A DNA stretch of 64,000 bases from an uncultured Acidobacteriota bacterium (lineage in GTDB: Bacteria > Acidobacteriota > Thermoanaerobaculia > Gp7-AA8): assembly GCA_963741955.1 (NCBI GenBank), contig CAVUKB010000004.1, forward strand, positions 96,001 to 160,000, written 5' to 3'. Made by a program: the position numbers and the translations under genes. The notes beneath the pieces were generated by a model. The model was not told where the DNA came from, did no database searches, and saw nothing but the letters and a program-made list of their open reading frames with translations. Each line of letters starts with the position of its first letter. Position 1 is the first letter of the stretch. Positions 6,001 through 35,000 of the stretch are shown one piece after another.

Positions 6001-9000
6001 CGTCGACGTCACGCAGACCATCGGAAGCGGCCAGACGATCGCGGTCGACGCGACACATCCGCTGTCCGGTGACTCGATTATCGTCGATGGCGGCCAGCTC
6101 GTGCCGCACATCCCGCTCGCGCTGTCGAACCTGATCGTGATGAACGGTGGAGTCGTCAAGACGGTGCGATCGACCACCACTGCCGATCAGAAGCTCGACC
6201 TCACCGTCTCGGATCACCTCTACATCGACGCGGCCTCTTCCATCGACGTGACCGCGTGCGGATACCTCGGCGGCCACCAGCAGAATTTCGATCTCACCGG
6301 CACCAATGACGACGCCCGCGGAATGACTCTCGGACGGACCGTCGAAGGCGGCACACAGCCCGGTGCGTCTGCGTCCTACGCAGGCCTCGGCGGTGAGCCG
6401 CAGAGCGGTCTTACGAACCCGGTGTACGGATCCATCACCGATCCCTCCGATCTCGGGAGCGGCGGCGGTGCGGCCAGTGCGACGGGAGGGAGTGCGGCCG
6501 GCGGTCAGGGCGGCGGCGCCACCTCGCTGACTGCGCCTTCCGGCGCCCGCGTCGCGATTGCCGGCGTCATTCTCGCGAACGGCGAGGATGGTGTGGGCCG
6601 CGGCGGTGCCGGTTCCGGCGGCGGCATCTCCATTCACGTCGACTCGATCGTTCTCGGCGCGGCCTCACGTCTCGCGGCCAACGGCGGCGACGACGACGCG
6701 GCGGATCAGACCTCGCGCGGCGGCGGAGGCGGACGTGTCGCGATCTCCGCGACGTCCCTCCTCGATATCGATACGGCGAATCCGCCGCACGTGAAAGCTC
6801 GCGGCGGACGGAACCGCGGAGGGGAGATCGCCAGTGCGCTCGACGGCGGCGCGGGAACGATCTATCTCCGCGCGCCGGGTGCGACCGACGGAATGCTCGA
6901 AGTCTCCTCGCTCGATCCGCGATACCCGACGTCGATTCACCTCACCCGGCCGACGCCCTTGAGTGATGCGACCGGAGCGCTCTCGTTCGATGCGATGGCC
7001 GTCGGCCCGCGCGCGCTCGTGCGCGCCGACGCGCAGCTCACCATCGGCGGAGTCACTGATGATGTTTCGAAGGCGGCGGTCGATCCGACGGCAGTCCTCG
7101 TGCTGCAGAACCAGCAGCCTTCGATCTCGCTCAGTACCACACCCGGTGAAGGGTCGTCTCTGATCCAGGGATCGTCACTGAACGTGACTTACGACGCCAC
7201 ATCGCTCTCGGGCGTGGGCGAGGTCCGGCTTCAGTGGTCGCCGGTGACGCCCGATCGCGTCGACCCGTTCACGTCGTACCCGGCAGACACCGGGTTCAAA
7301 GGTGCGGCGCTCGCGATTCCGGTCGATGCGGTTGCCGGCTCCACGGCGACGCTCGCGCTCGGGGCGACCGATCGCGCCGGACGCAGCGTCGATTCGGCTC
7401 CGCTCAGCTACACGATCGTCGCGAACAGTGCACCTGTGATCGACCGCTTCGACGTCACCGCGCCGTCGCCTCTCTATCCCGGCGCACGTGTCACCGTCAC
7501 GATTGACGCACACGACGACCTCTCGGTCACGAAGCTGGCGCTCGACAGCCAGATCGGCTCGGGCGTGGTGAATACACAGTCCGTGACGCCGAACACCAGC
7601 GCGATCCTTCAGAACTTCACGATCGATATTCCGAAGGACATTCCGGCCGGCGCGACGACGCTCACACTCACCCTCTCCGTGGAAGACGCCTTCCCCGCAC
7701 GGAGCGCGACGGTCCAGACGCAGACGCTCACCATCACTCCTGATACCGCGGCGCCCACGGTGCAGATCACCGCACCGGCAACGGGCGCGCTCTTCAACGA
7801 AGGGAGTGGCAACACCATCCACGTCGTCGCCACCGCGACGGACGTCGAGACCGGCATTGCGCAGATCACGGCAACGATCGAGAGCGGCACGACGGCATCG
7901 ATGACCGCGACCGGCAATCCGAACGAGTACGCCACCGACCTCCCGGTGCCGAACGTGGTCGGCGACCAGGACGTCACGAAGCAGATCACCGTCACCGCGA
8001 CGGATTACGCCACGCATTCGACTGCGATGATGCTGCCGGTCACCATCCATCCGCTCGTCGATCCGACTGCCCCGGTCATCACCTGGGCCTGCGGCACCAC
8101 CGGCGCGATGTTCCCGGTCGGATACACCGCGCAGCTCAGCATCACCGCGACGCCTCCGGCGAGCGGAAACGCGGTCGAGAGCGTGACGTTCTTCGACGGC
8201 ACGAACAGCTACCCGGCCACGCAGAATGGCACGACCTGGAGCATCTCTTACGTGATTCCCGACGTCGGCGACGGCACAGCGATCCCCATCAGCGTCACCG
8301 CGACCGCGCAGGGCGGCGCCGCGGCCGACGCACAGACCTCCATCACCGCAATCGTCGCCGACAAGACCATCACCTCAGATACGACGATCCTCGACGGCGA
8401 CGCGACGTACGACAACCAGACGGTGGTTGTCGAGGGCGGTAGCCTGACTCTCGACGGAGACCATACGTTCACGAGATTCATCGTCCTCTCCAGCGCCGTC
8501 GTCACACATCTTCCGACCAACGCTTCAGGAGAGCACCATCTCGGCGTTACCGCTGACCGCGTGTTCGTCGCCTGCGGAGCCAGAGTCGATATCACGGCAC
8601 GCGGATACTCCGGCTGGACGAATGGCCAGGCAGCCACGTGGCCGAACAGATTCGACAACGGCAGCAGTGGCTACTCCGGCGGGAGCCACGGTGGAATTGG
8701 CGGTAACTATTCGGGAACACCGGCGCCGGTGTATGACTCCGTCTACGAGCCGCACGAACCGGGAGGCGCGGGAGCCGGATCGCCCAATAGTCAGGGTGGC
8801 GGTGTCGTGCGAATCGACAGCTCGACGCTGACGTTGGACGGATCGATCGTCGCGAATGGAACTGTCGATGGAGGTTCCTACGCTATCTCGGGTGGTGGTG
8901 CAGGAGGCACTGTCCTGATCCATACGGGCTCGATGTCGGGTGTCGGCCAAATCTCCGCTGATGGTTCAACAGGCCTGTGGCAAACGAGCGGCTACTATGC

Positions 9001-15253: not shown

Positions 15254-16826
15254 CAGGTGTGTAGCAGAGTTCATAGGCCGAGAGGATGGAATGCGATTGC
15301 TGACGTACAGAGGAACGCCATTGCGATCAGAGCTTCCGCGGTGTGAAAGCCGAAAGCGCGGTGACTGAGCATTCGGATCTTGTTGTTGCAGCCTTCAGCA
15401 ACTGCATTCGTGAGTCGATACTCGAAGTAACGGCGGATGCCAGGCCATTTCGCCGCGACGGTTCGCGCGAAGCGAACGAGGGGTTGAATGCGGCTATGAA
15501 CCGCGGACTGATACCAGCGCTTGAACCGTCGATCAGCTTGGCGGACGGACGAGGAGTCATAGATGTCCTGAAAGGATTCCTTGACCAGGTAACTGCGAAA
15601 GAGGGTGTGATTCATCCGCGCGAGCTCCGAGAGTTTCGCCTCCTCGGCATCACGCAGGTTCCAGGGGTTCTTCAGGAGGACGAACCGAGTGGATTTGAGA
15701 GCGGAGCGCTCCTCGCCGGTGGCCTTTCGCATCTCGTCCCGCCTCACCTGATCGATCGCATTCCCGAGGAGTTGGACCACGTGGAACCGATCGAAAACGA
15801 CCTCGGCGTTCGGCAGTCGGTCGCGAACAGCTTTCTCGAAGGCCGCGCTCATGTCGATGCTCACCAGACGGATTCGCGCGCAGCGCTCGGGGCCGAGCAG
15901 ATCGAACAGCCCGTCGAGAACCTCTGCACTTTTACCCTTCGCCGCCCAGATCATCTGCCCGGTCTCGTGGTTCGTGACCACGGTCATGAACTTCTTCGGC
16001 CGCCCCCAGCAGATCTCGTCGATGCCGATCCGGGTCAGATTCTCGAGCGCGTTCGGGTCGCGTTTTTCGGCAACCACTCGAGCGGCGATCCGTCCGGCCG
16101 TGAGCCAGCTGACCTTGAAGTACGCCGAGACCGCGGTTTGATTGGATCGCTGCAGAAACCAGGCAAGCTCGTCTTCGAACGCGCGGGTGAACATCGAACC
16201 AGGCCGTGCCCACGGAACCGCGGCCGTTCGCACCCCGCAGCGGCGGCAACGCACCCGCGGCAGATCCGCCCGCAGCATCACCCGGCATCCCCAGAGGCCG
16301 AGATGACGCCATTCGCGATGCTTCATCACCGTTCCGTGAAGCTCGGGAGCAACCCGTCCGCACCCTCCGCACCGCGGACGTCTCCACGTTGGACTCACGT
16401 CGAGATAGAGACTCCGAGCTTCGAACCGAACCCCGCGAACCGTTACGTTTGCCATGTTGAGCAACTTCCGGAACAATGTCGTCAGGCGCACCGTGCCTGT
16501 CCTCCCCGTGTCTTGGTTTCATCGACTACAGACTACGGGAAATGGGCAGCACGGTTCGCCGATTCCAACCTGCTATCGCTGCTTCGATCTTCACCTCTCC
16601 ACGAGCAGCGACTTTCGGGGCTCCTTCAGATCCTTCCGCGACGGCGGGGCAAGTTGTGGGAACGGCGGAAAACGCGGCGGCCGGGTGGCGGCGTTTTCCG
16701 CGGTTTCCACAACTTCGCTTTCCGAACGCTTCGGCGAACACCGACTTGCTCCTCGAAAACAGCCGCGTCGCCGTTCCTGCATGCCTCCGACAATCATTCC
16801 GCACCTACACACCTGTTAGGAGAACC
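15243..16826 (-). mobile_element. ISL3-family insertion sequence, copy 1 (1584 bp)
   Basis: 22-bp IRs GG(A/T)TCTCCTAACAGGTGTGTAG; 8-bp target duplication AATTTTTG at 15235-15242 and 16827-16834. Confidence 0.95.
15271..16491 (-). CDS. ISL3-family transposase
   Basis: CxxC zinc-finger motifs, 'IGIDE', 'SIDMS', 'VFDRFHV', 'TNAVAEGCNNKI...AFGF'. Confidence 0.95.
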   Translation of the reverse strand: MRLTTLFRKLLNMANVTVRGVRFEARSLYLDVSPTWRRPRCGGCGRVAPELHGTVMKHREWRHLGLWGCRVMLRADLPRVRCRRCGVRTAAVPWARPGSMFTRAFEDELAWFLQRSNQTAVSAYFKVSWLTAGRIAARVVAEKRDPNALENLTRIGIDEICWGRPKKFMTVVTNHETGQMIWAAKGKSAEVLDGLFDLLGPERCARIRLVSIDMSAAFEKAVRDRLPNAEVVFDRFHVVQLLGNAIDQVRRDEMRKATGEERSALKSTRFVLLKNPWNLRDAEEAKLSELARMNHTLFRSYLVKESFQDIYDSSSVRQADRRFKRWYQSAVHSRIQPLVRFARTVAAKWPGIRRYFEYRLTNAVAEGCNNKIRMLSHRAFGFHTAEALIAMAFLCTSAIAFHPLGL

Positions 16827-16844
16827 AATTTTTGCCGGCCCTCC

Positions 16845-17070
16845 GAGCCTCGAGCCCCGAGCCTCGAGTCCCGCATCCACTCTTCCGAGCCTCGAGCCCC
16901 GAGCCTCGAGCCCCGCGTCTCTCACCTCGAGCCTCGAGCCTCGAGTCTCGAGCTCCGCGTCTCTCACCCCGAGCCTCGCGTCCCGAGCCTCGAGTCCCGC
17001 GTCTCTCACCCCGAGCCTCGCGTCCCGCACCTTCAGCCTGGAGCAGCGATGACTTCACCTTCGCAGAAAG
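16845..17070 (+). repeat. Heptamer array with 42-bp period + RBS + MTSPSQK start module, copy 2
   Basis: Tracts start at 16845, 16887, 16929, 16971 and 17013; GGAG-cagcg-ATG at 17049. Confidence 0.85.
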
Positions 17071-20000
17071 CCATGAAAATGACGCAATCTCGCCAGACGG
17101 AGTCGCCCATCGGCCTCGACACTCAGAGACAATCAGACTGTCCCTCTCGAACCGGTTTATTCCGGACTACGGAGCGGCAGCAAGCGCGCGCGAGCGCCGC
17201 GCTCGTCGACACTGATCAGACAACCTGCCTGGATCGCCTCGGCGTGACTCTCGACGAGAGCAAGGATCATCGCCACGAGTTCCTCGTTCAGCACGTCCAC
17301 CATGCGGATCTGAATGACAGTGGGAAGACGCTGGGAGCTCAGGGCGAGGAGGTCGCTGAAGTCGAGGTCCCGGGTGACGACGACCCAGCCTTGCCGTCGA
17401 GCTCTCTCCAGAATCTCGGAATCAGCTGCGGTCGGCTCGCCGATCGACATCCAGTGAACGCTCTCGATCCCTCTTGTCGACAGCTTTCGCGCGAGGGAAG
17501 GAGCGAGATTGAAGTCGATCAGCAGCTTCACTGCGGGTCCGCAGCCTTACCGATCTCGACCTCGGCCTCGGACGAACGCCACGCTCCGTACGCCAGTGCC
17601 TCGCGGATGTCCGCTTCCTCGAGGTACGGATACTCGGACAGAATCTCCTCGGCAGTTCGCCCGGACGCAAGGAGCCCGAGGATCGTTCCCACCGTCACCC
17701 GCATCCCGCGGATGCACGGCTTTCCGCCCATGACTGCCGGATCCCTGGTGATGCGTGTCAGCCGATGCATGTCAGCCCTCCAGCGGAAGATCGGCGGTGC
17801 GGCTGCCGATCGTGTCCATTCCATCTCCCGCAACGCCACGGCCCGAACCCGAAATCTCGACAGGCCGAGGCATACTTCGAGCAGCCGCAGGAGCTCGGCT
17901 CTGAGCGGCCTCTCCGCCGCGCTGCTTCTCTTCTTCGCGCTACTTCCCGCCCTCCCTCTTTTCGCCCAATCTCCGACCGAAGTCGTCGTTCAGGAAGACT
18001 TCCAGTCGTACCCGACCCAGGCCAACCCGCAAGGCTGGGTCGATACCTCCGTCGGCAACCCGCACCCCCAGGCCGAGGGGCTGTACAAGACGTGGCCGGA
18101 TCCGACGCAGGGGAACAAGGGAGCGAATGTCGTCTACGGGACGAAACAATCCTCCGGCAAACCGGAAGGGCGCAACCCGCGCATCGGGACATTCTCCACA
18201 CTCGTCGATCACACATTCGGCACAAAGGGACGTTTCGAATACCGCGGGCGTTTCATCCGCACGCGCTCCGACGCGCGCATCGGCCTCACGTTCCTCTCCT
18301 CCTATCCCGACTCCGACCACTATTACCTTCTCGGCCTCTGGTCCCAGGCGACGTCGAGCAAGCTCACCATGCAGCTCTTCTCGTTCGGCGCGGGGACGCT
18401 GACCGGCACCATCGACAGCAACTTCACTCCCGAGCCCGGCAAGTGGATCCGCTTCCTCATTCAGGTCGACGGATCGGACGCTGGCAACAAAATCCGCGCG
18501 CGCTTCTGGATCGACGGCACCGACGAGCCGTCCGGATTCACGATCGAGGCGGAAGACTCCGCCGCGGGACATCTCGCGTCGGGCCGCATCGGTATCTGGG
18601 CCGCAGTCAAGGGCGACGCATACTTCGACGAGCTCTTCGCGAAGTACCCGGTCGACATCACCGCGCCCGCAATCTCCTTCCTCGAGTCGGGAACTACGCT
18701 CAACGACGGCGCGAAGTTCAACCGCGACGTCGCCCCCGCGATTCAGGTCGTCGACGACACCGACCCGAGCCCCTCCTGGTCCGCAACGCTCGACGGACAG
18801 CCGTTCACGTCCGGAACGACGGTCGCCGCCGAGGGAACGCATCTCCTTGCAGTCGACGCGGCCGACTCAGCCGGGAACGCGTCGCACGCCCAGCTCTCCT
18901 TCTTCATCGACAAGACTGCGCCGCTCCTCGCGGTTACCGAATCGGGCGCGCCACTCGCCGACGGCGCGATCTTCGATCACGATGCTGTCGTCTCGATTGT
19001 CGTGACCGACATCAGCGCGACCACCGACGCGATCCTCCTCGATGGCCAGCCTTACACATCGCTCACCCCGATCACCACGGAAGCGCAGCACGAGCTTTCC
19101 GTCTCTTCGATCGACGAGCTCGGAAACGGCCCCACGACGTTCGGTCCGGTTCATTTCTTCGTCGACGAGACCGCGCCGGTCGTGACCATTCTCCAGAACG
19201 GAGCGACGCTCCAGGAAGGCTCGGCGTTCAACCACGACGTCACCGGCTCACTCGCTATCGAAGACCTGACCCCGACCACGAGCTCCATGGCCCTCGACGG
19301 GCAGCCCTATGCGTCCGGAACGCCGATCAGCACCGACGGCTCTCACACCCTCGCCGCGACGGTCACGGACTCCGCTGGTCACACCACCACCGCCGGCCCG
19401 CTCCATTTCATCCTCGACGAGGCAGGGCCCACGGTCACCATCCTCGAGAGCGGCCAGCCGTTCCCGGCGGCCTATTTCTTCAACCGGGATGTCGTCGCGT
19501 CGGTCTCAGTCGACGACATCGCGCCGCACACCGCGACGATGTCTCTCGATGGTCAGCCGTACACGGAAGGGACGCCGATCACCGCCGAAGGTCCGCATGA
19601 GATCTCGGCGCACGTGACGGACACCGCAGGAAACGACGTGACCGTCGGTCCGATCGCGCTCACCATCGACAAGACTCCGCCCGTCGTGACGCTCCTCGAG
19701 AGCGGCCAGCCGTTCGCGGCGGGCCAGACGTTCCCACGCGACGTGGTCGCGGATGCCACTGCCACCGACACGATCTCGAAGGCCACGCTCACTTTGACCC
19801 TCGATGGGCAGACGTACGTCGCCTCCACTCCCGTCACCGCCGAAGGAGAGCACACCTTCGCCGCGACCGCCGTCGACCAGGGGGGGAACACGGCGTCCGC
19901 CTCCGTCTCCTTCGTCATCGACGAGACTCCCCCCGAGTTGTCGTTGCTCCTCGGCGGGCAACCGTTCCCGGCCGACCTCTGGACGAATCAGGATGTCACT

Positions 20001-23000
20001 CCCGAGCTCGACATCGTCGACATCTCCACCACCACGACCGACGCGACGCTCGACGGAGCACCGTACGCGATCGGCGCGCCCGTCTCTCTGGAAGGGGAGC
20101 ACGTTCTCGACGTCGCCGTGACCGATGCCGCGGGGTGGACCACGACGCTCGACGCGGTGACGTTCCACATCGACCGCGTACCTCCGGCACTCACTGTCAC
20201 TTCGCATCAGCAGGGTCAGGTCTTGCCGGAGCCGCGCGTCGTCCTCGCCGGCGGTGCGGATGACGCCGTGAGCGTCACGGTGAACGGCCAGACGGCGACG
20301 GTCGACGCGACGGCGAGAACGTGGACTGCGCCCGAGCTTCCACTGCTCGAAGGAAGCAACGCGTTCACGATCCGCGGGACGGACCGCGCCGGGAACAGCG
20401 GGGAGATCACGCTGAATCTAGTTGCCGACACCCGCGCGCCGGAGCTCGCGATCGTGGCGCCCGTTGCCGGAAGCTGCGTCGCCGGCTCGCCGCTCGAGAT
20501 CCGCGGTTCAGCCAGCGATCCCGAGATCGGCGACGTCGTGGTCTCCGTCGATGGAACGTCGGTTCCCGCCTCGCTCGACGCGTCCGGCAACTTCGTCGTC
20601 ACGTTCGCCAACCTCTCCGAAGGAGAGAAGAACGTCACCGTCACGGCGACGGATACGATCGGACATGCGACCTCGCTCGTCCTCCCGCTCAGCATCGACC
20701 GCACGCCGCCGGTCATCGCCGTCACCGAGGGCGGCAAGCCATTCACCGCGACGCTCGTGAACCGCCCGATTGCACTCTTCATCAGCACCAGCGACGCCGA
20801 CCCGAACGCGAAGCCGGTGGCAACGCTCGACGGCGCGGCGTACTCCTCCGGCTCCACGATTGCGAATGAAGGTGCCCACGCGCTTCAGATCACCGCGACC
20901 GACTGTGCCGGTCTCACCGCGACGAGCTCCCTTACCTTCACCATCGACACGACCGCACCGACCATCACGAACCTCCTCCCCGCCAACGGTGCCACGGTAG
21001 GGGAGATGCCGACGACGGTCACCGGCAAGACCGATCCTGACGTCCACGACCTCGTCGTTCGAGCCTCGAGCCTCGAGTCCCGAGCCTCGTCTTTCGCCCC
21101 CGACGGCACCTTCACCATCCCCAGCGTCCCCTTCGCCGAAGGGGAGAACCGCTTCACGATTCACGCGACCGATGACGCCGGAAACTCCAGCGACACGCCG
21201 TACGTCGTCACCGTCCGCACGACGACTCCTTCTCTCGAGATCCTCGACAGCGGCTCGCCGATCCCGCCCGGCGCGCTCTACAACCGCACCGTCACGCCGG
21301 TGATCCGCAGCGGAGCCTCCGACGCGACGATCTCCGCGACCCTCAACGGCGATCCCTTCACCTCGGGGACGGAGATCACCGCGGACGGCGCGTACACTGT
21401 CGACGCCACCGCCACCGACTCGCTCGGCCACAGCGGGAACGCAACCGCGACGTTCTCGATCGACCGCACGCCTCCCGCTGTCGCGATCGCCTCGCCCGCC
21501 GACGGCGCGGCGATCGACGCCGATCAGGTCGTGGTGACCGGCACGTCCGGGGATGCGACATCCGTCAATGTCGACGGCGCGCCCGCCGCACTCGACGGCA
21601 GCGGCCACTTCACCGCGACGCTTCCGCTCGAACCGGGCGAAACGGCGATTATTGCGACCGGCCGTGACGCCGCCGGCAACTCCGGCACCGCTCAGATCAC
21701 CGTCACCCGCGCCGCTGCTGCGACCGGCATCATCCTCACGTCACCCACCGACCACTCCCTGACCAACCGCCCGACCACAGTCGTCACTGGCCGCATCCTC
21801 ACTCCCGCAAATGCCGTGTCGCTCGTCATCGACGGCACCGCGCTCGGAGCGCAGGCTACCGGCCGGCGCTCTCCTTCAAATGCACCCGGATCCACGCCGC
21901 TCGCGACGGCCCATTCCCCTCTCCCCGTCCGGACCTTTGCCTCGGGCGTAAATCGAACTCCGGGGAGAGGGGTCAGGGGTGAGGGGCAACTACGCGCGCA
22001 AACCGAAGTTGTGAGCACGAGTCCCGAGTCCCGAGCCTCGAGCCTCGCAACTCCCTTCGACCCCACCGGCGCATTTCGCGTCACCGCGTTCCCTCTGGTC
22101 GAAGGCGAGAACACCATCACCGCGACCGTCACCGACAAGTCCGGCAAGACCAGCACCGCGAGCGTCCGGATCACAGCAGACCTGACCCCACCCGCTGTGT
22201 CGCTGCTCGAATCAGGCCAGCCTCTGGAGGACCAGGCCCGTTTCGCGACGCAAGCCCTCCTCTCCGCGACGGCGACCGACTCCGGTGCCGCCATCGACGC
22301 GACCCTCACCATCGACGGCGCGTCTGCCACGTCGCCCGGCACGATCACGGCTGCCGGCCCGCACATCGCAATCGCCTCGGCACGCGACACGGCCGGCAAC
22401 GTGACCCGCGTCCAGCGCACGTTCTTCATCGGTACGGAGCAGGGGAGTGGGTGCGGTCTCTCCGCATTCGATCCTGCCGATGGCTCCGTCGTCACCGCGA
22501 GCTCCGTCACGCTCGTCGGCCGCAGCGGCGGCGCAGCCGGCGTCACGGTCAACGGTGTCCCCGCAGTGGTCGCGAACGGCTCGTTCTCCGGCACCGCGGA
22601 GCTCCCGCAGGAAGGGCCGAACCTCGTCACCATCCGCTGCACCGACGCCTCCGGCAACCCCACCGGCGGCCCGGTCACCCTCACTCTCAACCGCGTCACC
22701 GGCAATCCATCCGTTTCCATCACCACTCCCGCCGAGATGGCGACGTTCGCCGCCGGAACCGTCGATGTCACCGGCACGTACGCCGATGCCTCCCGCGTCG
22801 ACGTCAACGGAGTCGCCGCGACGCTCGCGAACGGAACCTTCAGCGTCGCCGCGCTCCGTCTCTCTCCTGGTCTGAACATCCTGGTCGCCCGTGCCACCAA
22901 CGAAGCCGGCCGCAGCTCCATCGCTTCGCGCCGCGTCCTCTATCTCGACAAGTCGTCCGTGATCTCCATCGACTGGCCGAACGACGGCTTCACCACCGGC

Positions 23001-26000
23001 GCCGCCTCTCTGGACGTCAGCGGCACGTGGAGCAATCTCGTTCCGTCGACCATCACAGTCAGTGTGAGCGGCGTGCAAGAGGCGAGAGACGAGAGGCGAG
23101 GGGCGAGAAGGAACACAACAGGTCGGCTGCGGTCGGCGGAGCCACGATCGAAGAACGATGTCGCGAGCGACGACGGTACGGTTTCTTCACGCACCGCCCG
23201 CCACTCGACACACGCCTCCGATCGCATCGCAGCGCAGGGAGAGAAGAATGAGCTTCGACTATCGCGATCTGAAAGCGTGGCAGCTCGGAATGCAGATGGC
23301 TCGTCGGGTCTACGAGATCACGCGAGATTTTCCGAAGCGAGAACAGTACGGCCTGACGCAACAGATCCAGAAGGCAGCCGTTTCGGTTCCGTCGAACATT
23401 GCGGAAGGTCATGCGAGGGATTCGACGGCGGACTTCCTCCGCCATCTGTCGATCAGTCGCGGTTCGCTCGCGGAATTGGAAACGCAGCTGATCTTGGCGA
23501 AAGCTTTTGGATATCTCCCTCTGCAGAGCCTGGAGGAGTTGATGAAAGTATCGGACGAGCTGAGCCGAACTCTGAGGGGACTTCAAAAATCGTTGAGGCG
23601 TCGACTGGAGAAGAAACCATAGCGGAAGTGTCGATCGATGCGATTGCGTGGTCCGACACGACTGGAAACTTCATCGCTCACGCGGTGCCCTTGCTTCCCG
23701 GTACTCAGACCATCACCGTGACGGGTTCGACCATGGATGGTCGCATCGCCACCACGAGTATTCGGGTGACCAGAATCGATGGCGAATCAGACATTACGAT
23801 CGATTCGCCTCTCGCCGAATCCTGGTTCAGCGCGAACGCGGGAGATCCGATCTCCGTCGCCGGCACCTTCACTGCAGCTCCCGGTTCCAATGTCGAGGTG
23901 AATGGTTCGACGGCGACCCTCGGCGTCGCCTCTTCTTCGACCAGAACAGTCACCCTCGCCGCGTCCTCAACGAGCGCTGTCTCTGCGCACCCCGTTTCTT
24001 CGCTCGCCTCTCGCCTCTCGCCTCTCGCCTCTTCTTCGACCAGAACAGTCACCCTCGCCGCGTCCTCAACGAGCGCTGTCTCTGCGCACCCCGTTTCTTC
24101 GCTCGCCTCTCGCCTCTCGCCTCTCGCCTCTTCTCCTTACTCTGCAACCGCCGCGTTCTCCTCCTCCGACCCCACTCCCATCATCGCCCGCGTCACCCAG
24201 CCCGACGGCCTCTCCGCGATCACGACCATCTTCGTCCATCACCTCTCGGGCGCTCCTGCAGTGAAGGACGTCTTCCCCGCGGACGGCGCCACTTCCGTCG
24301 ATCCCGCAGCGCTGATCCTCGTCTCCTTCTCCGCGCCGATGGACCGCGCGTCGCTCTCGGCCGCATTCACGCTCGAGAACATGAGCGGCATGCCCGTCGC
24401 CGGACAGATGCGTCTCGATCGCGATGTCCTCAGCTTCGCCCCCGCGACGACTCTCAATCCCGGCGAGCGCTATACCGTCCGTCTCTCGACCGCCGCGAAG
24501 GACCTCGCCGGGAATGCGCTCGCCTCCGAGTTCACCAGCAGCTTCACGATCTCCACCACGGCGCCATCCACCGCGCCGGTGGTGAACCCGGTCGCCTCGC
24601 CCCTCTGCTCGGATCGGGTCGCCCTCAGCGGCACGGCACTTGCGGGGTCACGTCTGCGGATCGATTTCAAGGGCGTTCCGCAGTTCACGGCCGCGGCTCC
24701 GACGGAACGTGGCATTTCGATCTCGCCATCCCCGCCGAATCGGGATTCGACGTGGTCCGCGTCCGCATCGTCGGCGGCGACGGCACGCTCTCGCCTGCGG
24801 CCGAAGTGAAGTTCCAGGTCGACTGCGCCGGTCCGCAGCTTCTCGGCGCGTCCTACGACCGCACCACGAACATCGTCACCATCGACGTTCTCGAAGCCGA
24901 TGGATCTCGCATCAGCGTCCACCGGCCGAACTCCGCTCTCTCTCTCCAGATCGCCGACGGCACGATCCTCGGCGGCACCGTCGCGCAGGGCGACGAGCTC
25001 CTCTTCGCTCACCCTTACGCCAGCATCCGATCTGACGCAGCAGACGTTCACGCTCAACGTCACGACCGCGATCAAAGACACTACCGGCCGCAACCTCGTC
25101 TCCGGCTATACGCAGACCTTCGCCACCGGCTCCGGATCCGAACCTCCTCCCACCGACGGCACCGGCTACATCTCCGGCAAGATCCTCGACGCCGCCACCG
25201 GTCGCCCCCTCGCGGGCGCGGACATCACCATTGACGTCCCCGTGAACGCCTTTGCCCGAGGGGAGCAAGCTCATAGCTTGCTCTCTCGTTCCACTGGATC
25301 CGCACCCATGCCTCTCGGGACCTCCGGTTCCCCTCTCCCCGTCCACACCCAGGCCTCGGGCGCAATTCGCACTTCGGGGAGAGGGGTCAGGGGTGAGGGG
25401 CAGCTACGCGCGCTGAGCGAAATCGTAAGCGCCGCTTCGTCCACCCTCTCCTCCGACGCCACCGGCACCTATACCACCCGCCTTCCCGAAGGCGCCTACA
25501 CCATCCACGCATCCGCTCCCGGCTACACCGAGGTCTGGCGCCAGATCGTCGTCCCGGCCGGCCAGGGCGTCCTCCCGATCGACATCCGTCTCACACCCCT
25601 CGGCGCCACCGGCACCGTCGGAGCGGCCTCCATCGAGCCCCGAGCCTCGAGCCTCGAGCCTCGGTTCCGTCGGCTCTCCCACGAGCCCCGAGCCTCGAGC
25701 CTCGAGCCTCGGCTCTGTCGGTTCTCCCACGAGCCCCGAGCCTCGAGCCTCGAGCCTCGGCATCCTCTTCAGACCTGACCCTCTCCCACGGCGGCGAGAC
25801 ATCCGTCACCCGCCCCGCGACGCTGACCGTCCCCTCCGGCGCCGATCACCTCCGGCACGACACTGACACTCACCTCCGTCGGCGGCCAGTCCCTCGCCGG
25901 CCTCCTCCCTCTCGGCTGGTCCCCGCTGGCGTCCACAGAGATCTCCTCCGTCGCCACGTCCGCGAACGCAGCCCGAGGGGAGCGAGCTTATAGCTTGCTC

Positions 26001-29000
26001 TCTCCGAAGACATCCGCAGAAATCGGACCTGCCAGCGCGAATCGCCCAGCGTCCTCCCTCGCCGCTCCGGTTTCGTCCTCACTCGTCTCTCGCCTCTCGT
26101 CTCTCGCCTCTCTCCCCAACTCCACTCTCACGTTCACCGTCCCTTACACCGATATCACCAGCGCGGCTCAGACCCTCACCGCCGTCCGCTACGACAGCGA
26201 TCGCGACGAATGGATCGTCCTCGAGCCCGTCGTCAGCATCACCTCCGACGGCCCCGCCTCGATCACCGTCGACTCCACCGGCGCGTACGCTCTCGTCTAC
26301 CCGGATAAGGACTCGGGGAGTACTCTGCAGACTCCACCGCTCCCCATTCCAGGCTCGGCGCTCGCCGGCGTCACTCCCGTCGACCTCGATCCGACGACCA
26401 TCACCGCATCTCTCACCCTCGATCCTTCGATCGTTCTCCCCAGCGGCCGAACCGTCGGCACCCTCACGGTCTCTCCGAGCCTCGAGCCTCCAGCCTCGAG
26501 CCTCGCGTTCCCCTCGGGCACCGCAGTCCAGGCGTTCGTCCACGAAGAGCTGCGTCTCGTCGACGGAACCGTCGTCGCGGACCAGCCGTTCTCCGCGGAC
26601 CTCGTCCTCTACCGCACGCTCTCCGGCGCTCCGGCGACCGCGGCGTTCCACCTCCAGCCGAGCGCGAAGGCCGCGACGGTTCCGCTGCAGATCGGCTACG
26701 ACCACATCCGCGTCTTTCCGTATCCCGGACGCCTCGACCGCGGCACACTCATCGGCCCCGAGGGTGGACGCGTTCCCTCGGATGGGGGAGTGGAGCTCGA
26801 GATCCCGCCCGGCGCAGCCACCGAGCCGCTCCACGCCAGCGCGACGTCGCTCGACGCCACTGCGCTCGCTTCCTACGGCACCATCGACGGCTTCACCCTC
26901 GTCGGCGGCTTCACGTTCTCGCTCGACCGCGCAGTCGGGGGAGAAGAGGCGAGAGACGAGAGGCGAGAGGCGAGTGGATCTGACGCCCGAGGCTCTCGTG
27001 GCTCGGGCTCTTCGTCACGCGCATCGGAGATTGGAGCTGGCAACGGTGATCGTGAAGCGTTCTCTCTCGCCTCTCGTCTCTCGCCTCTCGCCTCTGACGT
27101 CGCGTCCCCCACGCTTCTCGCCTCCGCCCGCGCGACCTTCTCCGTCGACACGACCAATCTCACCGCGCCCCAGTTCATCCTCGCCGAGGTCCTCGGCGAC
27201 ACGCCGTACGGCCGTGTGATCCGTCTTGCGAACGTGATGGAACCACTTGTTGGAGGAGCCGAGGCTCGAGACTCGAGGCTCGAGGCTCGCAGCGGCATCG
27301 CCCGTGGAGAGCAGGCTTATAGCCTGCTCCCTCCGGTACCATCTTCAGACACGGGTGTCGCGAACGATCATCGTCAGGCGTCCTCTCTCGCCTCTCGCCT
27401 CTCGTCTCTCGCCTCTGATTCCACGCGCATCACCACATCCAGGATCGATCCCTCGAACCTCCCTCTCGACGGCATCTCCCACTCCGGGATCTACCTCCTC
27501 CTCCGCGCGAACCAGCCCATCGCCTACGCGACGGGTCTCGTCCGCTTCGGCATCTCCGGCCTCTACGCCTCCGACGCCAGCGTCCTCTCACTCACGTCGA
27601 CGCCACTCGGGACGGCGTCGGTCAAGGAGGCGAGAGGCGAGAGGCGAGAGGCGAGGGGAGGAACGAATTCCGGACTTCTGTCATCGTCACCCGCTGATGC
27701 GCAGGCTCATAGCCTCCGCTCTGGTTCCGGCAAATCCGTACCCGCGACTCTCGCGACGCCCGCTTCCCCTCTCCCCGTCCGCACTCTCGCCTCGGGCGCA
27801 AATCCCAATTCGGGGAGAGGGGTCAGGGGTGAGGGGCAACTACGCGCGCAGAACGAGGTCGCTCGCAGGGCCTCCTCCCTCGCCTCTCGTCTCTCGTCTC
27901 TCGCCTCTTCTCCCGCGTCGCTCGCCGCTTCGTCCCCCCTCGGCACCACCGACCTTACCCGCCCCACCGGCCTCTTCTCCATCCCCGTCGTCGCCACTCC
28001 CGCGGATCCCTTTGCGCTCCAGCCCTCGCACCCATCCACCGGCGCCGGCACCCCCTGGACCGCAAACTCCAGCCCTGACCCCGGCATCGTCATTCACGTT
28101 GGCGATCTTGTTCTCACATCGCAGCCGCCGCAGCTCCAGCACGTCAACGTCATTGGCGGCGACCCCTCCGGCACGATCGACCTCGTCGCCGTGAACGGGG
28201 CAGGCGAGATCTCCCTAGGCACGAGTGTTCAGGCCCTCTTCGACGTGAACCTCGATCCGGCATCCGCCGGCGCGACCTCGCTCGTCGTCACCGACGCGTC
28301 CACGCAGACCGTCGTCGCGGGCACCGCGATGCTCGCCGGCTCGACCCTCACCTGGACCGCATCCACTCCGAACGCGCTTGCGCCGTCGAGGCAATACAGG
28401 GTGACCCTCTCAGCCACGCTCCGCGGCGCGAACGGCGCCCCGCTTGGGACGACCCGCACGTTCGCCTTCACCACCGTTTCGCAGATCACCAGCACCGAGA
28501 TCGATCCTTCCAAGATCCACATCACCATCCCCGACGCGAACGGCGTATCCACAATTTACGGCCTCCCCGGCGCGCTCCCCTCCGGCTGGCGCGCCGTCGC
28601 CCTCCGCCGCGGCACCGCCTTCGTCACGCAATACCAGACCACCGCCGCAGGGGATGGAAGTTTCTCGTTCGCGATCGGCGGGTGCGGGGGAGGGACGGGG
28701 GTCGGGGGTCAGGGGTCAGGGGTCAGGGAGCTGAGTCGATCTGATCGCCGGACCTCTGAGATTTCCCGCGACGAAGCCTTGTCCCTGTATTCGTCGACCC
28801 ACACGTCACCCCGACCCCTGACCCCCGACCCCGGACCCCTAAGCTCCGTCTCGCAACCACAATTACGAAAGGCCACTCATGAAGATACAAACCTATCGCG
28901 ATCTGGTCGTCTGGCAGGAATCGATGCAGCTCGCGAAACAGGTGGTCCTGATCGCGCGTCGGTTTCCTCGGGAGGAACTCTTCGGATTGTCGGCGCAGGT

Positions 29001-32000
29001 CAAGAGAGCAGCCGTATCGGTGCCGTCGAATATCGCGGAAGGGCACGCGCGGGATTCGACGAAGGAGTATCTCCATCATCTATCGATTGCTCACGGTTCT
29101 CTGGCCGAAGTGGAGACGCAGCTCCTGCTGGCGAAGGATCTTGGCTGGGGAGACTCGTCTTCGATCGAAGGAGCTCTCCAACAGAGCGATTCACTCGGCA
29201 GGAAGCTTCACGCATTACGCAGATCGCTTCGATCGCGCCGCTGACGGCGGCTCTCCCTGACCCCCGACCCCTAACCCCTGACCCCCACTCCCGTCAGGCG
29301 ACTACGACATGCACGGACCAGCTCTCCCTCACCGACCACATCTCCCTCGAGATCCTCAACACCGCCGACAACATCGCGGCGATCATCCCGCTCACGCCAT
29401 TCGTCACGGCGGACGGCCACGGCTTCGTCGCCCCGCCCGACCAGGACATCACGTTCATCATCTCGGACGAGATTACCGTCCACGTCCCCGCCGGCGCGTT
29501 CGACCAGCCAACGCTCGTCACCGCCACGCCGTCCACGAAGGACGCCTTCTCCGAAGTCCCGAACTTCGACACAGAGCTCGACTACAAAGCCTCGGTCAAC
29601 CTCTCCTTCGACTGCACAGTGGCTTCTTCGTCCTCCCCGAGCCTCGAGCCTCGAGCCTCTAGCCTCGGTTCCCCAAGTCTCGGTTCCCCAACGAGCCTCG
29701 AGCCCCGAGCCTCGAGCCTCGCGTTTCCCTGTCGCGCGAACAAGCCCCTCGACCTCTCCATCCCGGTTCCCGCAAACACCGACCCCACGAAGCAATACCT
29801 CCTCGGCTGGCTCGGCCAGTCCATCCGCGGCCCGCGGATCATGATCGTCGACACCCTCCGCATTGACGGCGACCACTTCACCACCACGCCCGCGCCGTCG
29901 ATCGGAACGACCAGTGCGCAAACCGTGCACGCATCGTCGACCTTTTCAAACTCGTCGCTCTACCAGGTTCGAGATCCCGGAACGTACGTCATCACCTCAC
30001 TGCTCAGTCCCTACGCCTGGGTGGATGTCGTCGTCAGATCGGCTGACCTCTACTGGTCGACGTCGTTCTCTCTCTTCGTCGCAGAACGCTACATCACGAT
30101 GGCGAAGGGTCACGTATACATCCCCGTGCTGACGGACACGCCCTTCCGCGTCTACGGCGTGGACGCGACCGGTTTCGAAACCTATTCGCGCGATTACGAC
30201 GGAATCGTTCCTGGAGATCCTGGAGTTTCGGTAGCACTCCCATCGGCATCTCCCGATAACAATGGACCTTATCCCGTGTGGGGCAGCCCTTATCGCGTCG
30301 ATTCCGTAATCCTTCGCGATGGAGACGTGATCGTTCCAAACATCAAGGTCAATCAGTCGGGAGGAGTTGCGACGGTCACGCAGAACTCTTCCTCCACCAC
30401 CGCGAGTGTTCTTTCGAAGGGAACGAAGGTTCAGGCATTCGACGTCGAAACCGGCGCGGTGAACAGCGCGACAGTCGGTGACGGCGGCAGTTTCTCGATG
30501 TCAGTTTCTCCGGTCCATTCCGGAGACCGTCTTCTTCTCTTCATCAGTGCCTCCGACGTCGATCCGTCGAGTCTCGTCACCGTGGTTTTCAACGAGCCGC
30601 TCCAGCTCGCGAACATTCCGGAAGGCATGAGCTCCGCGGATGCCGAGATCGCAAACGAGAAGTTCCTGCACGACCTCATCGGCCTCGAGCACTTCACTAG
30701 TACGGGATGGGTACCGATAACCGACCAGGTGCACTTCCGGCACGATTCGGGAGACCGCCGAATCGTCCTCGAGTTGCCGTCCTCGCTGGTTCGAGGCGAT
30801 CGGTATCGGGTTCACCTCAGCGAGGCAATCACCGACGCCGGGGACAACCACATCGGATCGGTTAAGGACTCCAGCGGGAAGGTCACCAACGGCGCTGGAC
30901 TCCCGTTGGATCTCGAATTCACGGTCCGCAGCCCACACGGCGCGATCTCCTCTTTCGACATCGATCCGAGCACGGCTCACCATGGAGGGCTCGTGCGTGA
31001 CATCGCACGCAACGACACCCTCGTCTTCGTCTCGGCTCTCGACGGCGGAATCCTCGCCTACGATACATACGATCCGGCTGCACTCGCAAAAGACGGAAGC
31101 ACTCCGGCGCCCCTTTCCTTCGTGCCGGCCGCATGGACCAACGATGCCGGACAGCAGGTGACCGGCGGGATGGACGAGCACTGGGCGCTTGCCGTCGATA
31201 AGCACGGGCGCGTCTTTTCGACCGGCTTCATGGCCTCGTTCTCGGTCCTTCGGACTTACCGCGTGGAAGATTTCTGGAAGGCCTCCACTCAGCCCATGTG
31301 TGCCGGATTCGATCAGGCGCCACCGCACGCCCTCTGTAGATACGAGGGCTCCTCAATCATCGCCTGGCGCCCCGGAGTGTCGCTCGGCATTCCCGGGATC
31401 GACGATTCCCTCTACGGACTGACGGAAGGCTATCCGCGAAAGATCCGAGTCATTGAGCAGGACGATGGAGGGGAAGCTCTAGATCGAGACAACTTTGCGT
31501 CGACCTACGGAGGCGCGATCCAGAAGACCTTCAGCAATGGGATTCAGAAACTCTCCGTCACCGTCGCATGGGATACCACGAATCCCTACCAGCTCCAGCG
31601 CATTACGGTGGAGAACCTGACTCAACAGCTTCACTGGTCTGCCGACGCGACCCCGACGTCTCCTGCCGTGATCTCGGAGATCCTCGCCAAACCGGACGAC
31701 AAGCTCCGAATTGTGAAGAACGAGCGCACGTGGGCCGTCGTATCTCTCTTCGGCTACGGGATCGCCACCTACGACGTGAACGCCATCGAATCCAATGATT
31801 CACCAGATAAGGCTGCGGGTTACACCAACGTACCCGAACAGCTGTTCCTCTCGTCCGCCAGCGTCGACGATGCGTGCGACGGCCGGACGTTCCCGACCGA
31901 GGCGATCCGGGATTTGGCCTTCAGTCCCGATTTCGTCGCGAAAGTGGAAGTCGACGCCACGACCAACACAGCGACCATTGGGATCGACGCTCTCGATGTC

Positions 32001-35000
32001 CGCAAAGGCGTACTCGACGTCCTCACCCCGATCGGTGGGGGACTCCAGAAGGGGTCATGCCTCCAGCGGTGGGCGGGACTCATCGTGAACGACCCGGCGT
32101 CCGGATACCTCCTGAGCCGGTTTCAGGGCGTCAACGACGAATTCACGGAGAAACATCACCCGAACCCGTTCATTCGATTCAGCTCGGCCGACTATTTCGA
32201 CTGGACTGTCCAGGCAGAAGACAACACCATCGGACTTCGGGGATCGGAACCCGGCACGAACGTTCATCGTGAGTACGCGCTGGTCGCCGGTGGAGACTAC
32301 GGGCTCCTGGTGGTCGAGATCGGTGGCGATCCCCTCCCGAGCAAGGCTCCAGTGACTCATCCGCTCGATGCGGTGAACCTGGTCGACGACATCTGGTTCC
32401 CTGCAGGGGCCTATGCCGTTCGAGCGATTCCCGGTACCTCGATGGCCGCAGTCCTCGATGGGAAGCACCGGCTGCTGCTCGTCGACCTCTCGAGGATCGA
32501 CGAACGGTGGGACGAAGGCGTCGGGCCGAACGATTTCTTTCCCATCCCGGATGCGGCGATGAAGAACAAAGGTGGGCTCCCTGACGAGGTGGGTGTGGAC
32601 GACCCACGCATCATCTGGAAGTCGAAAGAGGACTTCATCGCTGGAAGCATTGCGCCGATCGTCGACCCGCGCACGGGCATCGTTTACGCGGGCGATTCCA
32701 CTGGCAAGAAGGTGAAGATCGGGTCAGTCCTCGATCCGCGGGTACGAGCACTCGCAGATCCCGATGGCACGGGACAACTGCGGGAGGTTGGCTCGGTCTT
32801 TGGCCTCGGAGTGAAGACCCTTCTCGCTCTTCCTTCGGTCGGTGGGCTCTCGGCGTTTCGATTCGAGGTCGATCTTCCCGGAGGCGTCGCTCAGTCGATC
32901 TCGGATCACAAACTCCACTTTGCCGTCGAAAGTGAGCGCCTCCCGGGTGTGGCCGAATTGCAGACCGCCGCTCCATGGCCGCTGTCGAGCCTCCGACTGA
33001 CTACACGTTCCGGTGAGGCGGAGCTGACCGGCAGGCAGACCGATATCGTTCTCGAGCAGGAGCTCACGAGCGGATTGACGCCGGAGGAGGTGGCGGAGCT
33101 CGCCCCGATCCTTCGAAAGCAGGAAGGATCCGCGCGATTCGTCTCGCCCTGGATCGTGGTCCTCGCAGATCCGCGTGCGAGCGAAACGGCGGCCCCACCC
33201 GTGGGCGGCCTTGCCGCTGCCGGATGTGAGAACTGCGTGCGGCCCGAGGCGCTTCGGAACAAGAGTCGAAGCGATGGCGTGTACGAGATCATGGCCACCG
33301 GCCCGCGGATTGCGATTCGTCCCGAGTGCGAGCTCGCCGCAGGATGCAACAACGTATTCGCGGGAACCCCGTACGAATATCTTGGCCAGAAGGGGAGACT
33401 CGAAGCGGTCCTCCAGACCACTCCCGCCGATACGATTCGCCCGACGGAAGCGCTCGTCGCCGCACAGAACCCTCCCGTCGCCGACGGGATGTTCCAGGAC
33501 GCGATCTATCTTCACAGTGGCGAGCTCGAGACTGTCTCGACGGACCTTGATGCGGGAGGTCGCGCTGGCTTCGAGGTCACGATCGATCGCTTCTACCGAT
33601 CGCGATCGATGGGAATGTCCCCGCTCGGCAATGGATGGGACTCGCCGCTGTACCGGCGTTTGCGGCAGCTTCCGGATGGGAGCGTCGAGTACCGCGACGG
33701 GGCGGATGTCTGGATCTTCAAGACCGGCGACGCCAGCACGGGAGTGGCGGACGTTCTCGCATCGATCGTTCGTCCGACTCTCGTCTACAAGTCACCGGCC
33801 GGACTCGATCTCAAGCTCGTCGCGAATCGCGACGGATGGGTCCTGATCGACCAGCAGTTCCGACTCACCCGATTCGACACGACCGGGCGCCTCGTCTCCG
33901 AGTCGGACGTGATGTACGACCCGAACAAGCCCGGGTCGGGCAACGTCATTCACTATCTCTATGATGACGAAGGTCGCCTCGCGCGCATCGTCGATCCTGT
34001 TGGGCGAGAAACGACGCTCACGTACTGGCACTACGGCGACGACCCGGCGAGGCGCTACCCCGGCCTTCTCGCGAAGGTCACCGACTGGCGTGGCCGTGAG
34101 GTCGAATACGACTACGATGCCGAAGGTCGCCTCACGGACGTTCGGCTCCCCGAAGCCGCCGCAGCGGACGGCGTTCCGTCGAAGTATTCCCATAGCCGGT
34201 GCGGCGCGCCCCGTGATCCACTACACGTACGACAAGACTCCCAGCCAGATCGCGTCGGGTCTCGATGCCCAGCACTCCCCGGAGGTCCTCGACTCGATGG
34301 AGTTCGTCGGAAATCTCGGCAGCGAAACGGATCCTGCCGAGGTCGCGTCCGGCGGCCCGCCGCGAGTGAGCTACACGTACGGCGCCGCTGGCGACGCGCT
34401 CACGCGCGACCGCATCTCGATCCAGCACTGGCCGTGCGGAAATCACGTCGGTGGTAGCTGCTCGAACCTCGACGCAACGCTGTCCTGGACCGCTTCGAAC
34501 GCGGTCAAAACGACCGATGTTCTCGGGCAGGTGCGGGAGTACACGCTGACCGATCCCGCGAAGTATGACGAAAAGGTTCACATCGGATCGATCAAAGCGT
34601 CCATACCAGCCATCGACTACTCGAACGGATTGCCGGAGGTAGCGCAACCTTCCCTGACACCCACCAGCGCCGACATTTCTATGAGTTACGAGTACGACGA
34701 CGCCGGAGAGATCCACATTGCCGACTCGTCCACGGGCCTCAAAACGCAACTCGACCACAAGGCGGCGAACAACGGGGCATCGGGCGAGCTGCTCTACGGA
34801 ATTGTTCAGATGGCACCGTCAATCGGTCAGTTAATCGCGAGCGTCGGTTACGACAATGTGCATCCGACCTCATCGAACGTGCTCTTTCAGATTGGGCGTC
34901 CGGATGCGGCGACAGGCAAGGATGTTTTTCGTGAACTTTCCATCGGCACACGCGATCGATCGAGCATCGAGCGCACCGATGCGGGAACGAAGAGCACCAC

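Follow-up and report, generated by a model that had tools for sequence, protein, structure and literature searches.

A four-helix-bundle gene nested in a stop-free insertion within a giant Ig-like surface protein gene, and the heptamer arrays that accompany its family

The closest known relative of the element described here is the intervening sequence (IVS) of the 23S rRNA of Coxiella burnetii and Leptospira. In Coxiella the IVS is described as a 428-nt element with a 28-bp terminal stem, an open reading frame (ORF) of the S23p (PF05635) type in the loop, and two or three tandem GACAGAT heptamers upstream of that ORF; RNase III excises the element, with its 5' cut at the first repeat (PMC4990558). 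We analyzed a window of 64,000 nt from an uncultured Acidobacteriota bacterium (C4:96001-160000 of genome G000, which has 5.4 Mb, 63% GC, 16 contigs and 99.1% completeness). In this window a four-helix-bundle gene of the same protein family lies in an insertion within an immunoglobulin-like (Ig-like) domain of a giant surface protein gene, and heptamer arrays lie around it. Coordinates without a contig name are positions in the window.

Two collections of loci were used for comparison. The first holds 109 full-length TIGR02436 genes from genome G000 and its relatives (one locus, L039, comes from the unpublished genome G022), and the second holds 80 TIGR02436-type loci sampled across many phyla. 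A gene was called nested if a spanning frame continues without a stop for 450 nt or more to either side of it. Every sequencing run recorded as containing this stretch is labelled soil metagenome. Three runs of one such study were used as DNA contigs; one of them, X1, may be the source sample and hence is not independent.

The nested gene and its host

The initial annotation described a TIGR02436 gene nested in a stop-free insert inside an Ig-like domain. That gene is real: profile scores, stop counts and orthologues without the insert all agree. The features of the locus are as follows.

16476..24809, plus strand: host ORF, a giant secreted Ig-like repeat protein (from the ORF list, Pfam and orthologues in four genera)
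23073..23630, plus strand: first insertion (the cassette), 558 nt or 186 codons, without a host-frame stop; missing in orthologues
23077..23107, plus strand: left arm (array 23078-23108; extended arm 23075-23111), 4.4 imperfect GAGGCGA copies with 83% matches
23181..23218, plus strand: degenerate right-arm-like stretch, GTTTCTTC and a decayed TCGCCTC run, 76% like the distal right arms
23248..23622, plus strand: nested four-helix-bundle gene, 124 aa, with GGGAG upstream of its ATG; the host reads the gene's +2 frame
23631..23925, plus strand: host coding sequence between the two insertions, about 295 nt, colinear with orthologues and single-copy in the genome
23926..24134, plus strand: second in-frame insertion, a 99-nt unit in perfect tandem (2.1 copies, 100% identical); orthologues are without it
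24003..24033, plus strand: right arm 1 (array 24003-24032), perfect (CTCGCCT)4.3, 94% complementary to the left arm
24102..24132, plus strand: right arm 2 (array 24102-24131), same sequence as right arm 1

The nested protein scored 122.1 bits against TIGR02436 (cut-off 24; 1.1e-35; profile positions 2-108 of 109) and 128.6 bits against PF05635 (cut-off 33.8; 1.3e-37; profile positions 1-105 of 106). The family-invariant residues E53, R57, S73 and E76 and the SNIAEG motif are all present, as judged from an alignment of 34 sequences with the window protein as reference (A1) and from a second alignment (A2). The nearest solved structure is PDB 2gsc (1.3e-26), an entry with five chains, and the title of its paper speaks of an assembly from five four-helix bundles (cited in PMC10053308). 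The nearest protein relative shares 66% identity. PF05635 is a very large family, with 3808 proteins at E <= 1e-20 among the candidates of one search with the nested protein.

In the host frame the translation runs ...TITVSVSG, continues from 23073 with 186 codons of hydrophilic insert, and resumes from 23631 with VSIDAIAWSDTTGNF... Between 23073 and 23630 the host frame contains 0 stops, the frame of the nested gene contains 1 (its own TAG at 23620) and the third forward frame contains 9; one reverse frame is likewise open across the insert. A search with the host-frame peptide of the insert, which among longer proteins covered those of 327-2000 residues, found no match. Orthologues of the host from four genera (G011, G007, G021 and G022) align on both sides of the two insertions and lack both, which still holds if the unpublished G022 is dropped. 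Both insertions sit just after the 'V.V.G' strand of two successive Ig-like domains, and the segment between them is the remainder of one such domain and the beginning of the next. The non-repeat parts of both insertions are single-copy in the genome, and one 1055-nt contig of X1, possibly the source sample, is identical to 22901-23955 and spans both cassette junctions.

In 5000 trials of synonymous resampling of the nested gene, the host frame stayed open in 2.2% when genome codon usage was followed and in 0.1% when codons were shuffled within the gene. Because these rates are low and four orthologues lack both insertions, the open host frame and the insertion are more than chance. Elsewhere in the family, the +2 frame is stop-free across the profile-matched part in 16 of 184 non-nested members. 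A consensus scan of 22800-24300 found no sigma-70-like promoter, and an Rfam scan of 22000-30000 returned only sub-threshold microRNA-precursor hairpin matches, located at small hairpin elements.

Thirteen Pfam families match the host ORF at E <= 0.01, among them Glucodextran_B, Big_13, Big_3_3 and Big_5. The true start of the host gene is probably near 17.8 kb, where a signal-peptide-like stretch lies. Two smaller kinds of repeat were seen in this gene and in the giant ORF that follows it. A short insert with heptamer runs of (AGGGGTC)/(GGGGTGA) reads ...SPLPVRT.ASG.N...GRGVRGEGQLRA... in translation; its three copies in the two giant ORFs lie at 21968-22055, 25376-25400 and 27818-27836. The second giant ORF also carries small hairpin elements at 26945-27101, 27260-27416 and 27627-27912, which are in-frame and stop-free and consist of a heptamer array, a loop of about 90-220 nt and the inverse array, some of them of the GAGGCGA family.

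Heptamer arms and nesting across the family

The left array of the cassette reads GAGGCGA GAGACGA GAGGCGA GGGGCGA. Each 99-nt unit of the second insertion has about 70 nt of unique sequence, followed by GTTTCTTCGC and then by (TCGCCTC)4, and the right arms so formed begin 381 and 480 nt past the stop of the nested gene. Left and right arms are 94% complementary over 31 nt and 81% over 37 nt when GAAGGAAC/GTTTCTTC are included. Minimum-energy and centroid RNA folds of 23065-24140 both pair the left arm with the distal right arm 2. The locus has the layout L-loop-R-gene-...-R-R. The gene had initially been assigned one left arm and two right arms, as around the second nested gene; that layout was found at both places, but here it is the next Ig-like domain that carries the right arms, in an in-frame insertion of its own that about 295 nt of host sequence separates from the cassette. 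Joints between heptamer arrays were not read as rearrangements, their short sides being 25-35 nt long and inside repeats.

The combination of gene and heptamer arms is a property of the whole family. A period-7 array lies within 300 nt of 53 of the 109 genes, compared with 7, 2, 5, 8, 5, 0 and 0 genes for periods 4, 5, 6, 8, 9, 10 and 11. Within 400 nt an array was called at 59/109 genes, on both sides at 36, and as an inverted pair of one heptamer family at 34; array density is 1.41 per kb near the gene and 0.16 per kb more than 700 nt away. The 80-locus sample gave period-7 arrays at 28 loci, any other period at no more than 3, and inverted pairs in six, with densities of 0.58 per kb near the gene and 0.08 per kb far from it. 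The commonest arms have 4-6 copies (73 of 155; median 5.1), and the median distance of arms from the profile-matched part of the gene is 39 nt before and 29 nt after it.

Among plasmid records that hold a relative, 21 of 22 are cyanobacterial. Five of six cyanobacterial plasmid copies examined have heptamer arrays upstream of the gene, three of them with clear inverted partners. On the Anabaena sp. 90 plasmid pANA02 (NC_019429.1; L211), cas6 and cas4 flank a four-helix-bundle gene whose arms are (ACAGGTG)/(CACCTGT). Altae-Tran et al. list '23S rRNA IVP' among new CRISPR adaptation module associations (PMC10910872), and the pANA02 copy may explain this published association of the family. For heptamer repeats together with the PF05635 family, the Coxiella description was the only literature found; nothing was found that extends the heptamers beyond that case to the whole family, or that describes cassettes nested in-frame in protein genes, and in both respects subscription journals and supplements may hold more.

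Five cassettes are nested inside long ORFs, whose hosts come from three lineages. In addition to the first, these are:

28698..29285, plus strand: second nested cassette, inside the next giant Ig-like ORF (25995..34457), with the host reading the gene's +2 frame
28698-28728, 28808-28840, 28879-29244 and 29255-29285, plus strand: parts of the second cassette, namely left arm (GGGGTCA)n, right arm, gene and second right arm
C4:5250-5610 of G000 (host 2392-6441, outside the window): third nested cassette, with short TAGGACT-type arms, in a HmaA-type SNF2/NOV_C helicase
L018 (G040:C24): cassette nested in-frame within the HHH_6 domain of the DNA polymerase III alpha subunit
L196 (Nitrosomonas sp. 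ANs5, NZ_JBEUDO010000061.1): cassette nested in-frame in a BREX PglX methyltransferase

The host is read in the cassette's +2 frame in 5/5, and all five have inverted heptamer arms and a host frame free of stops over arms, leader and gene. Hydrophobic residues make up 15-19% of the host-frame peptides, compared with 31-36% in the frame of the four-helix-bundle protein. The second cassette has the layout L-loop-R-gene-R. At the third, four orthologues of the HmaA-type helicase lack about 125 residues. PADLOC models gave 0 families for the four-helix-bundle protein at E <= 1e-5; the host genes PglX and HmaA do match. Antisense nesting was seen at none of the 109 genes, though 27 of them have an open antisense -0 frame across the gene. 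In the 80-locus sample there was one antisense spanning frame, at L152 of a Pirellulales metagenome-assembled genome (CAWJDB010000012.1; frame -1, about 1500 nt open on both sides), which may be a chance open frame or antisense nesting. Depletion of T-ending codons before AA, AG or GA was rejected as an adaptation to nesting: non-nested members are depleted too (16.2% vs 26.6%), and avoidance of TA could explain it.

The heptamer family of the arms differs between loci. As had been proposed for the paralogues of the window, 4 of the 6 full-length four-helix-bundle copies in genome G000 carry distinct heptamer families; of the other two, one has a weak one-sided heptamer run and one has none. 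The suggested comparison of protein with heptamer was positive (r = -0.32 between protein identity and heptamer distance; 0 of 500 permutations as low), and heptamers no more than one base apart make up 27% of pairs at 60-70% protein identity but 1-3% of pairs below 50%. The initial annotation had taken the different heptamer families of the paralogues as a hint of cognate protein/repeat pairs. Common descent of gene and arms predicts the covariation equally, so that specific recognition of the heptamer by its protein would be one of two explanations.

Cassettes at L026, L028 and L056 (G006, G007 and G015, in three genera) are syntenic between an ABC ATPase gene and a MacB permease gene. They carry GTGCTGA, GTGCCGA and GTCCTGA, respectively, and each change is present in the repeats of both arms. 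These cassettes show concerted, compensatory change of the arms and have long resided inside the operon by vertical descent. More generally, many cassettes occupy the gap from one stop codon to the next start codon, and 28 of 40 Pfam-identified flanking genes at 38 non-nested loci are co-oriented with the cassette (binomial P = 0.017, with kin not independent). At five loci from five genomes (L041, L084, L096, L069 and L081) the gene immediately downstream of the cassette begins with a PHP domain of the polymerase type. At five others (L019 on G029:C3, L011, L086, L145 and L205) the gene's own frame is open for 570-1480 nt upstream, which may reflect fusions or read-in from the upstream gene.

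Heptamer arrays are far from confined to the gene: depending on the caller, G000 contains 314 to 636 of them, compared with 7 TIGR02436 matches. The families found around four-helix-bundle genes rank among the abundant ones (137 arrays of the GAGGATC type, 33 of GAGGCGA). GAGGATC, the commonest, forms higher-order satellites in which (GAGGATC)3-4 is punctuated by TGAAAGGCATC (for example at C4:269107-269343 and C5:750997-751034), and it also flanks the four-helix-bundle gene at C6:534932-535249. Another four-helix-bundle gene, at C6:532487-532792, lies among unrelated repeats of about 100 nt (...GATTTCATTTGCGCGATTTGCCATGGA...; region C6:531650-533000) that are not heptamers.

Explanations for the locus

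We favor, with moderate confidence, the reading that an IVS-type gene cassette was inserted into the Ig-like domain loop of a giant surface protein gene. The cassette consists of a PF05635/TIGR02436 ORF that brings its own ribosome-binding site and has inverted arrays of about five heptamers on its two sides. As far as the reading frames indicate, host ribosomes would read straight through the insert, adding a hydrophilic and probably disordered loop of 186 residues, and the four-helix-bundle protein would be made on the host transcript by internal initiation, one frame over. In-gene insertions may persist only if they are co-oriented, leave the host on the +2 frame and keep that frame free of stops; the nested copies seen would therefore be survivors. 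By analogy with the 23S rRNA IVS, the arms may pair into a long stem that serves as an RNase III site, and an RNase III gene is present in G000. Alternatively or additionally, the arms may be the putative binding site of a homopentamer of the four-helix-bundle protein, with one heptamer per subunit. The two right arms are a separate in-frame insertion of the same heptamer family and can pair with the left arm, and their partnership with the cassette is plausible.

A wider proposal is offered tentatively, and we regard it as doubtful in its full extent. PF05635 genes with inverted heptamer arrays might be a widespread, unrecognised class of transcript-embedded elements that reside in rRNA genes, at operon junctions and in-frame in genes. 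In each, a homopentamer would recognise the array that accompanies its gene, each subunit taking one of about five heptamers; the protein would co-evolve with its array, the arms would be homogenised together, and cognate arrays would spread across the genome. The cyanobacterial STRR repeats, which have long lacked an explanation, would then be the same phenomenon.

Several observations weigh against the favored reading. The good right arms of the first cassette are not adjacent to it but lie in the other insertion, 381-480 nt away, and in the fold of the second cassette the left arm pairs with the proximal right arm, so that the gene is not enclosed. Throughout the two giant genes, arrays of GAGGCGA and of a second family are found in clusters. 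If the arms of a nested cassette were cleaved in an mRNA, the message of the host would be severed as well. No array was called at 50 of the 109 or at 52 of the 80 family members. Mismatches in 40 arm pairs comprise 22 of the G-U type, 28 of the A-C type and 81 others and show no G-U bias; selection for a stem in the sense RNA is therefore not favored, and the pattern fits homogenisation at the DNA level. Because nested cases were defined by an open spanning frame, their being always stop-free is partly ascertainment, and it is therefore the consistent orientation and frame, not the absence of stops, that provide an independent signal. Finally, the host frame is broken at about 24.7-25.0 kb, 1.1-1.4 kb past the insert: against the orthologues, 24690-25000 switches frame 0->2, 2->0, 0->2 and 2->0. 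Relative to the window, X1 contigs have an extra C after 24696, an extra T after 24925 and one base fewer at 24991, at three of these four places; the fourth break, near 24890, lies outside the coverage of X1 contigs. Since these single-base indels fall exactly at frame switches, the breaks look like assembly or strain differences rather than decay.

The alternative that survives best concerns the arms. The distal (TCGCCTC)4 arms may have nothing to do with the cassette and may instead be independent members of a dispersed family in insertion-tolerant giant genes, in which case the cassette's own right arm would be the decayed stretch at 23181-23218 or would have been lost. This is possible, although we think it somewhat unlikely. 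It draws on the position of the distal arms in a separate insertion, past the 295 nt of orthologous host sequence, and on the orientation of neighboring same-family arrays in the genome, 166 of which are direct and 11 inverted. Of the 33 GAGGCGA arrays in the genome, 6 lie within 5 kb of the nested gene where 0.06 are expected, a concentration that fits independent insertion into a tolerant gene and also fits local spread from the cassette. The AGCCTCG family (43 arrays), for which no four-helix-bundle gene was found, clusters in the same two giant genes as well, so that tolerance of insertions by these genes could explain the clustering in place of local spread. Against independent arms stand the complementarity that reaches past the heptamers (GAAGGAAC with GTTTCTTC), the pairing of the left arm with the distal right arm in the folds, and the layout of one left and two right arms shared with the second cassette.

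Far less probable is that chance or decay accounts for the locus, with an accidentally open frame in a host gene that is degenerating into a pseudogene in GC-rich DNA. At 63% GC, three of the six frames are open across the insert, and the host ORF does break after about 24.7 kb. Yet P is 0.001-0.022 for the first nested gene alone, the same +2 arrangement is found in five hosts of three lineages, orthologues match the host along its length, and the indels of X1 at 24696, 24925 and 24991 coincide with the frame switches.

We consider it very improbable that the host mRNA loses the insert in the manner of an intron, through cleavage at the arms and ligation, so that the host protein never contains it. 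The anatomy does resemble that of an excised 23S rRNA IVS, and the hosts include enzymes in which an insert of 130-190 residues might seem harmful. Excision would not need stop-free host frames, yet all five nested cassettes have them, in part by ascertainment. A scan of 78 flanking fragments at 39 loci for genes split by a stop-containing cassette matched both sides at L018 only, which is already nested. RtcB was not found in the 99.1%-complete genome, and excision of the IVS is described as leaving the rRNA fragmented and unligated (PMC4990558). Splicing is thus unlikely; in addition, excision at these arms would also take out a whole host domain segment. A diversity-generating-retroelement (DGR) module, with the four-helix-bundle protein as Avd beside a reverse transcriptase and the repeats as template and variable regions, deserves hardly any credence: the similarity to Avd models is weak and under their cut-offs (NF033474, 29.9 vs 80 bits; PF22296, 30.8 vs 40 bits), the sole RVT_1 match in the genome lies on another contig, C11, and the repeats are short inverted tandem heptamers, not a template/variable pair.

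To our knowledge, the PF05635 family has had no assigned function since 23S rRNA intervening sequences were described. Under the preferred reading of an IVS-type cassette, a concrete candidate function is a pentamer that binds the repeat array, or else an RNase III processing site. This hypothesis is suggested by the cassette design with inverted arrays of about five units, the concerted change of the arms, residence in transcription units and in-frame nesting. The nesting reaches both enzymes and surface proteins, including defence genes (PglX and HmaA) and a DNA polymerase. The cassettes also bear on annotation: they give rise to genes that overlap within genes and to long, unusual loops in host proteins, both of which gene callers may misread, and heptamer arrays add seven-residue repeats to coding sequence.

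Comparison with known systems

Inteins resemble the nested cassettes in being inserted in-frame in large conserved enzymes, including the Pol III alpha subunit. They differ in that the nested gene of a cassette lies in another frame and no protein splicing is implied. An intein was also considered for the locus and rejected: none of the 13 Pfam families matched by the host ORF together with its insert is of the Hint or intein kind.

The Avd protein of DGRs shares a homologous four-helix-bundle fold, and the solved IVS-type relative 2gsc is described as five bundles. Unlike Avd, the nested protein scores under the Avd cut-offs and has no adjacent reverse transcriptase with template and variable repeats, and an Avd identity was rejected.

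RAYT is a Y1 (IS200/IS605-type) transposase, whereas the nested gene matches only PF05635 and bAvd-like models, so that a Y1 transposase is lacking here. The REPIN/RAYT system (PMC3116915) is alike in that a gene is flanked by inverted short repeats whose family is also dispersed genome-wide. It is unlike the cassette in that the latter encodes a four-helix-bundle protein without a known catalytic motif, and in that its repeats are tandem heptamers, mostly solo, and not inverted doublets.

In-frame insertion into protein-coding genes is shared with the Rickettsia palindromic elements, which Ogata et al. (2000) reportedly described as selfish elements that are inserted in-frame in protein genes and translated as an extra peptide. 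Those elements are short, non-coding sequence families, whereas the cassette has a conserved gene in another frame and only its heptamer arrays are repeated.

Mazel et al. (1990) are said to have described STRR heptanucleotide repeats in heterocystous cyanobacteria. Like the arrays reported here these are dispersed tandem heptamers, and heptamer arrays adjoin the four-helix-bundle gene in five of the six plasmid copies noted above; no paper was found that links STRR to the PF05635 protein family.

The 23S rRNA IVS of Coxiella and Leptospira stands closest. It differs in location, the first cassette lying in a protein-coding gene and not in helix 9, 25 or 45 of 23S rRNA. The cassette also keeps a host frame open, has tandem heptamer arrays for both of its arms, and has its good right arm displaced to the neighboring insertion, so that the terminal stem around the ORF would be formed with a right arm 381-480 nt past the gene. 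The likenesses are that the same protein family occupies the loop, that the element is embedded in a host transcript, that terminal inverted repeats are present (28 bp in Coxiella, 31-37 nt in the first cassette), and that tandem heptamers lie upstream of the ORF in both.

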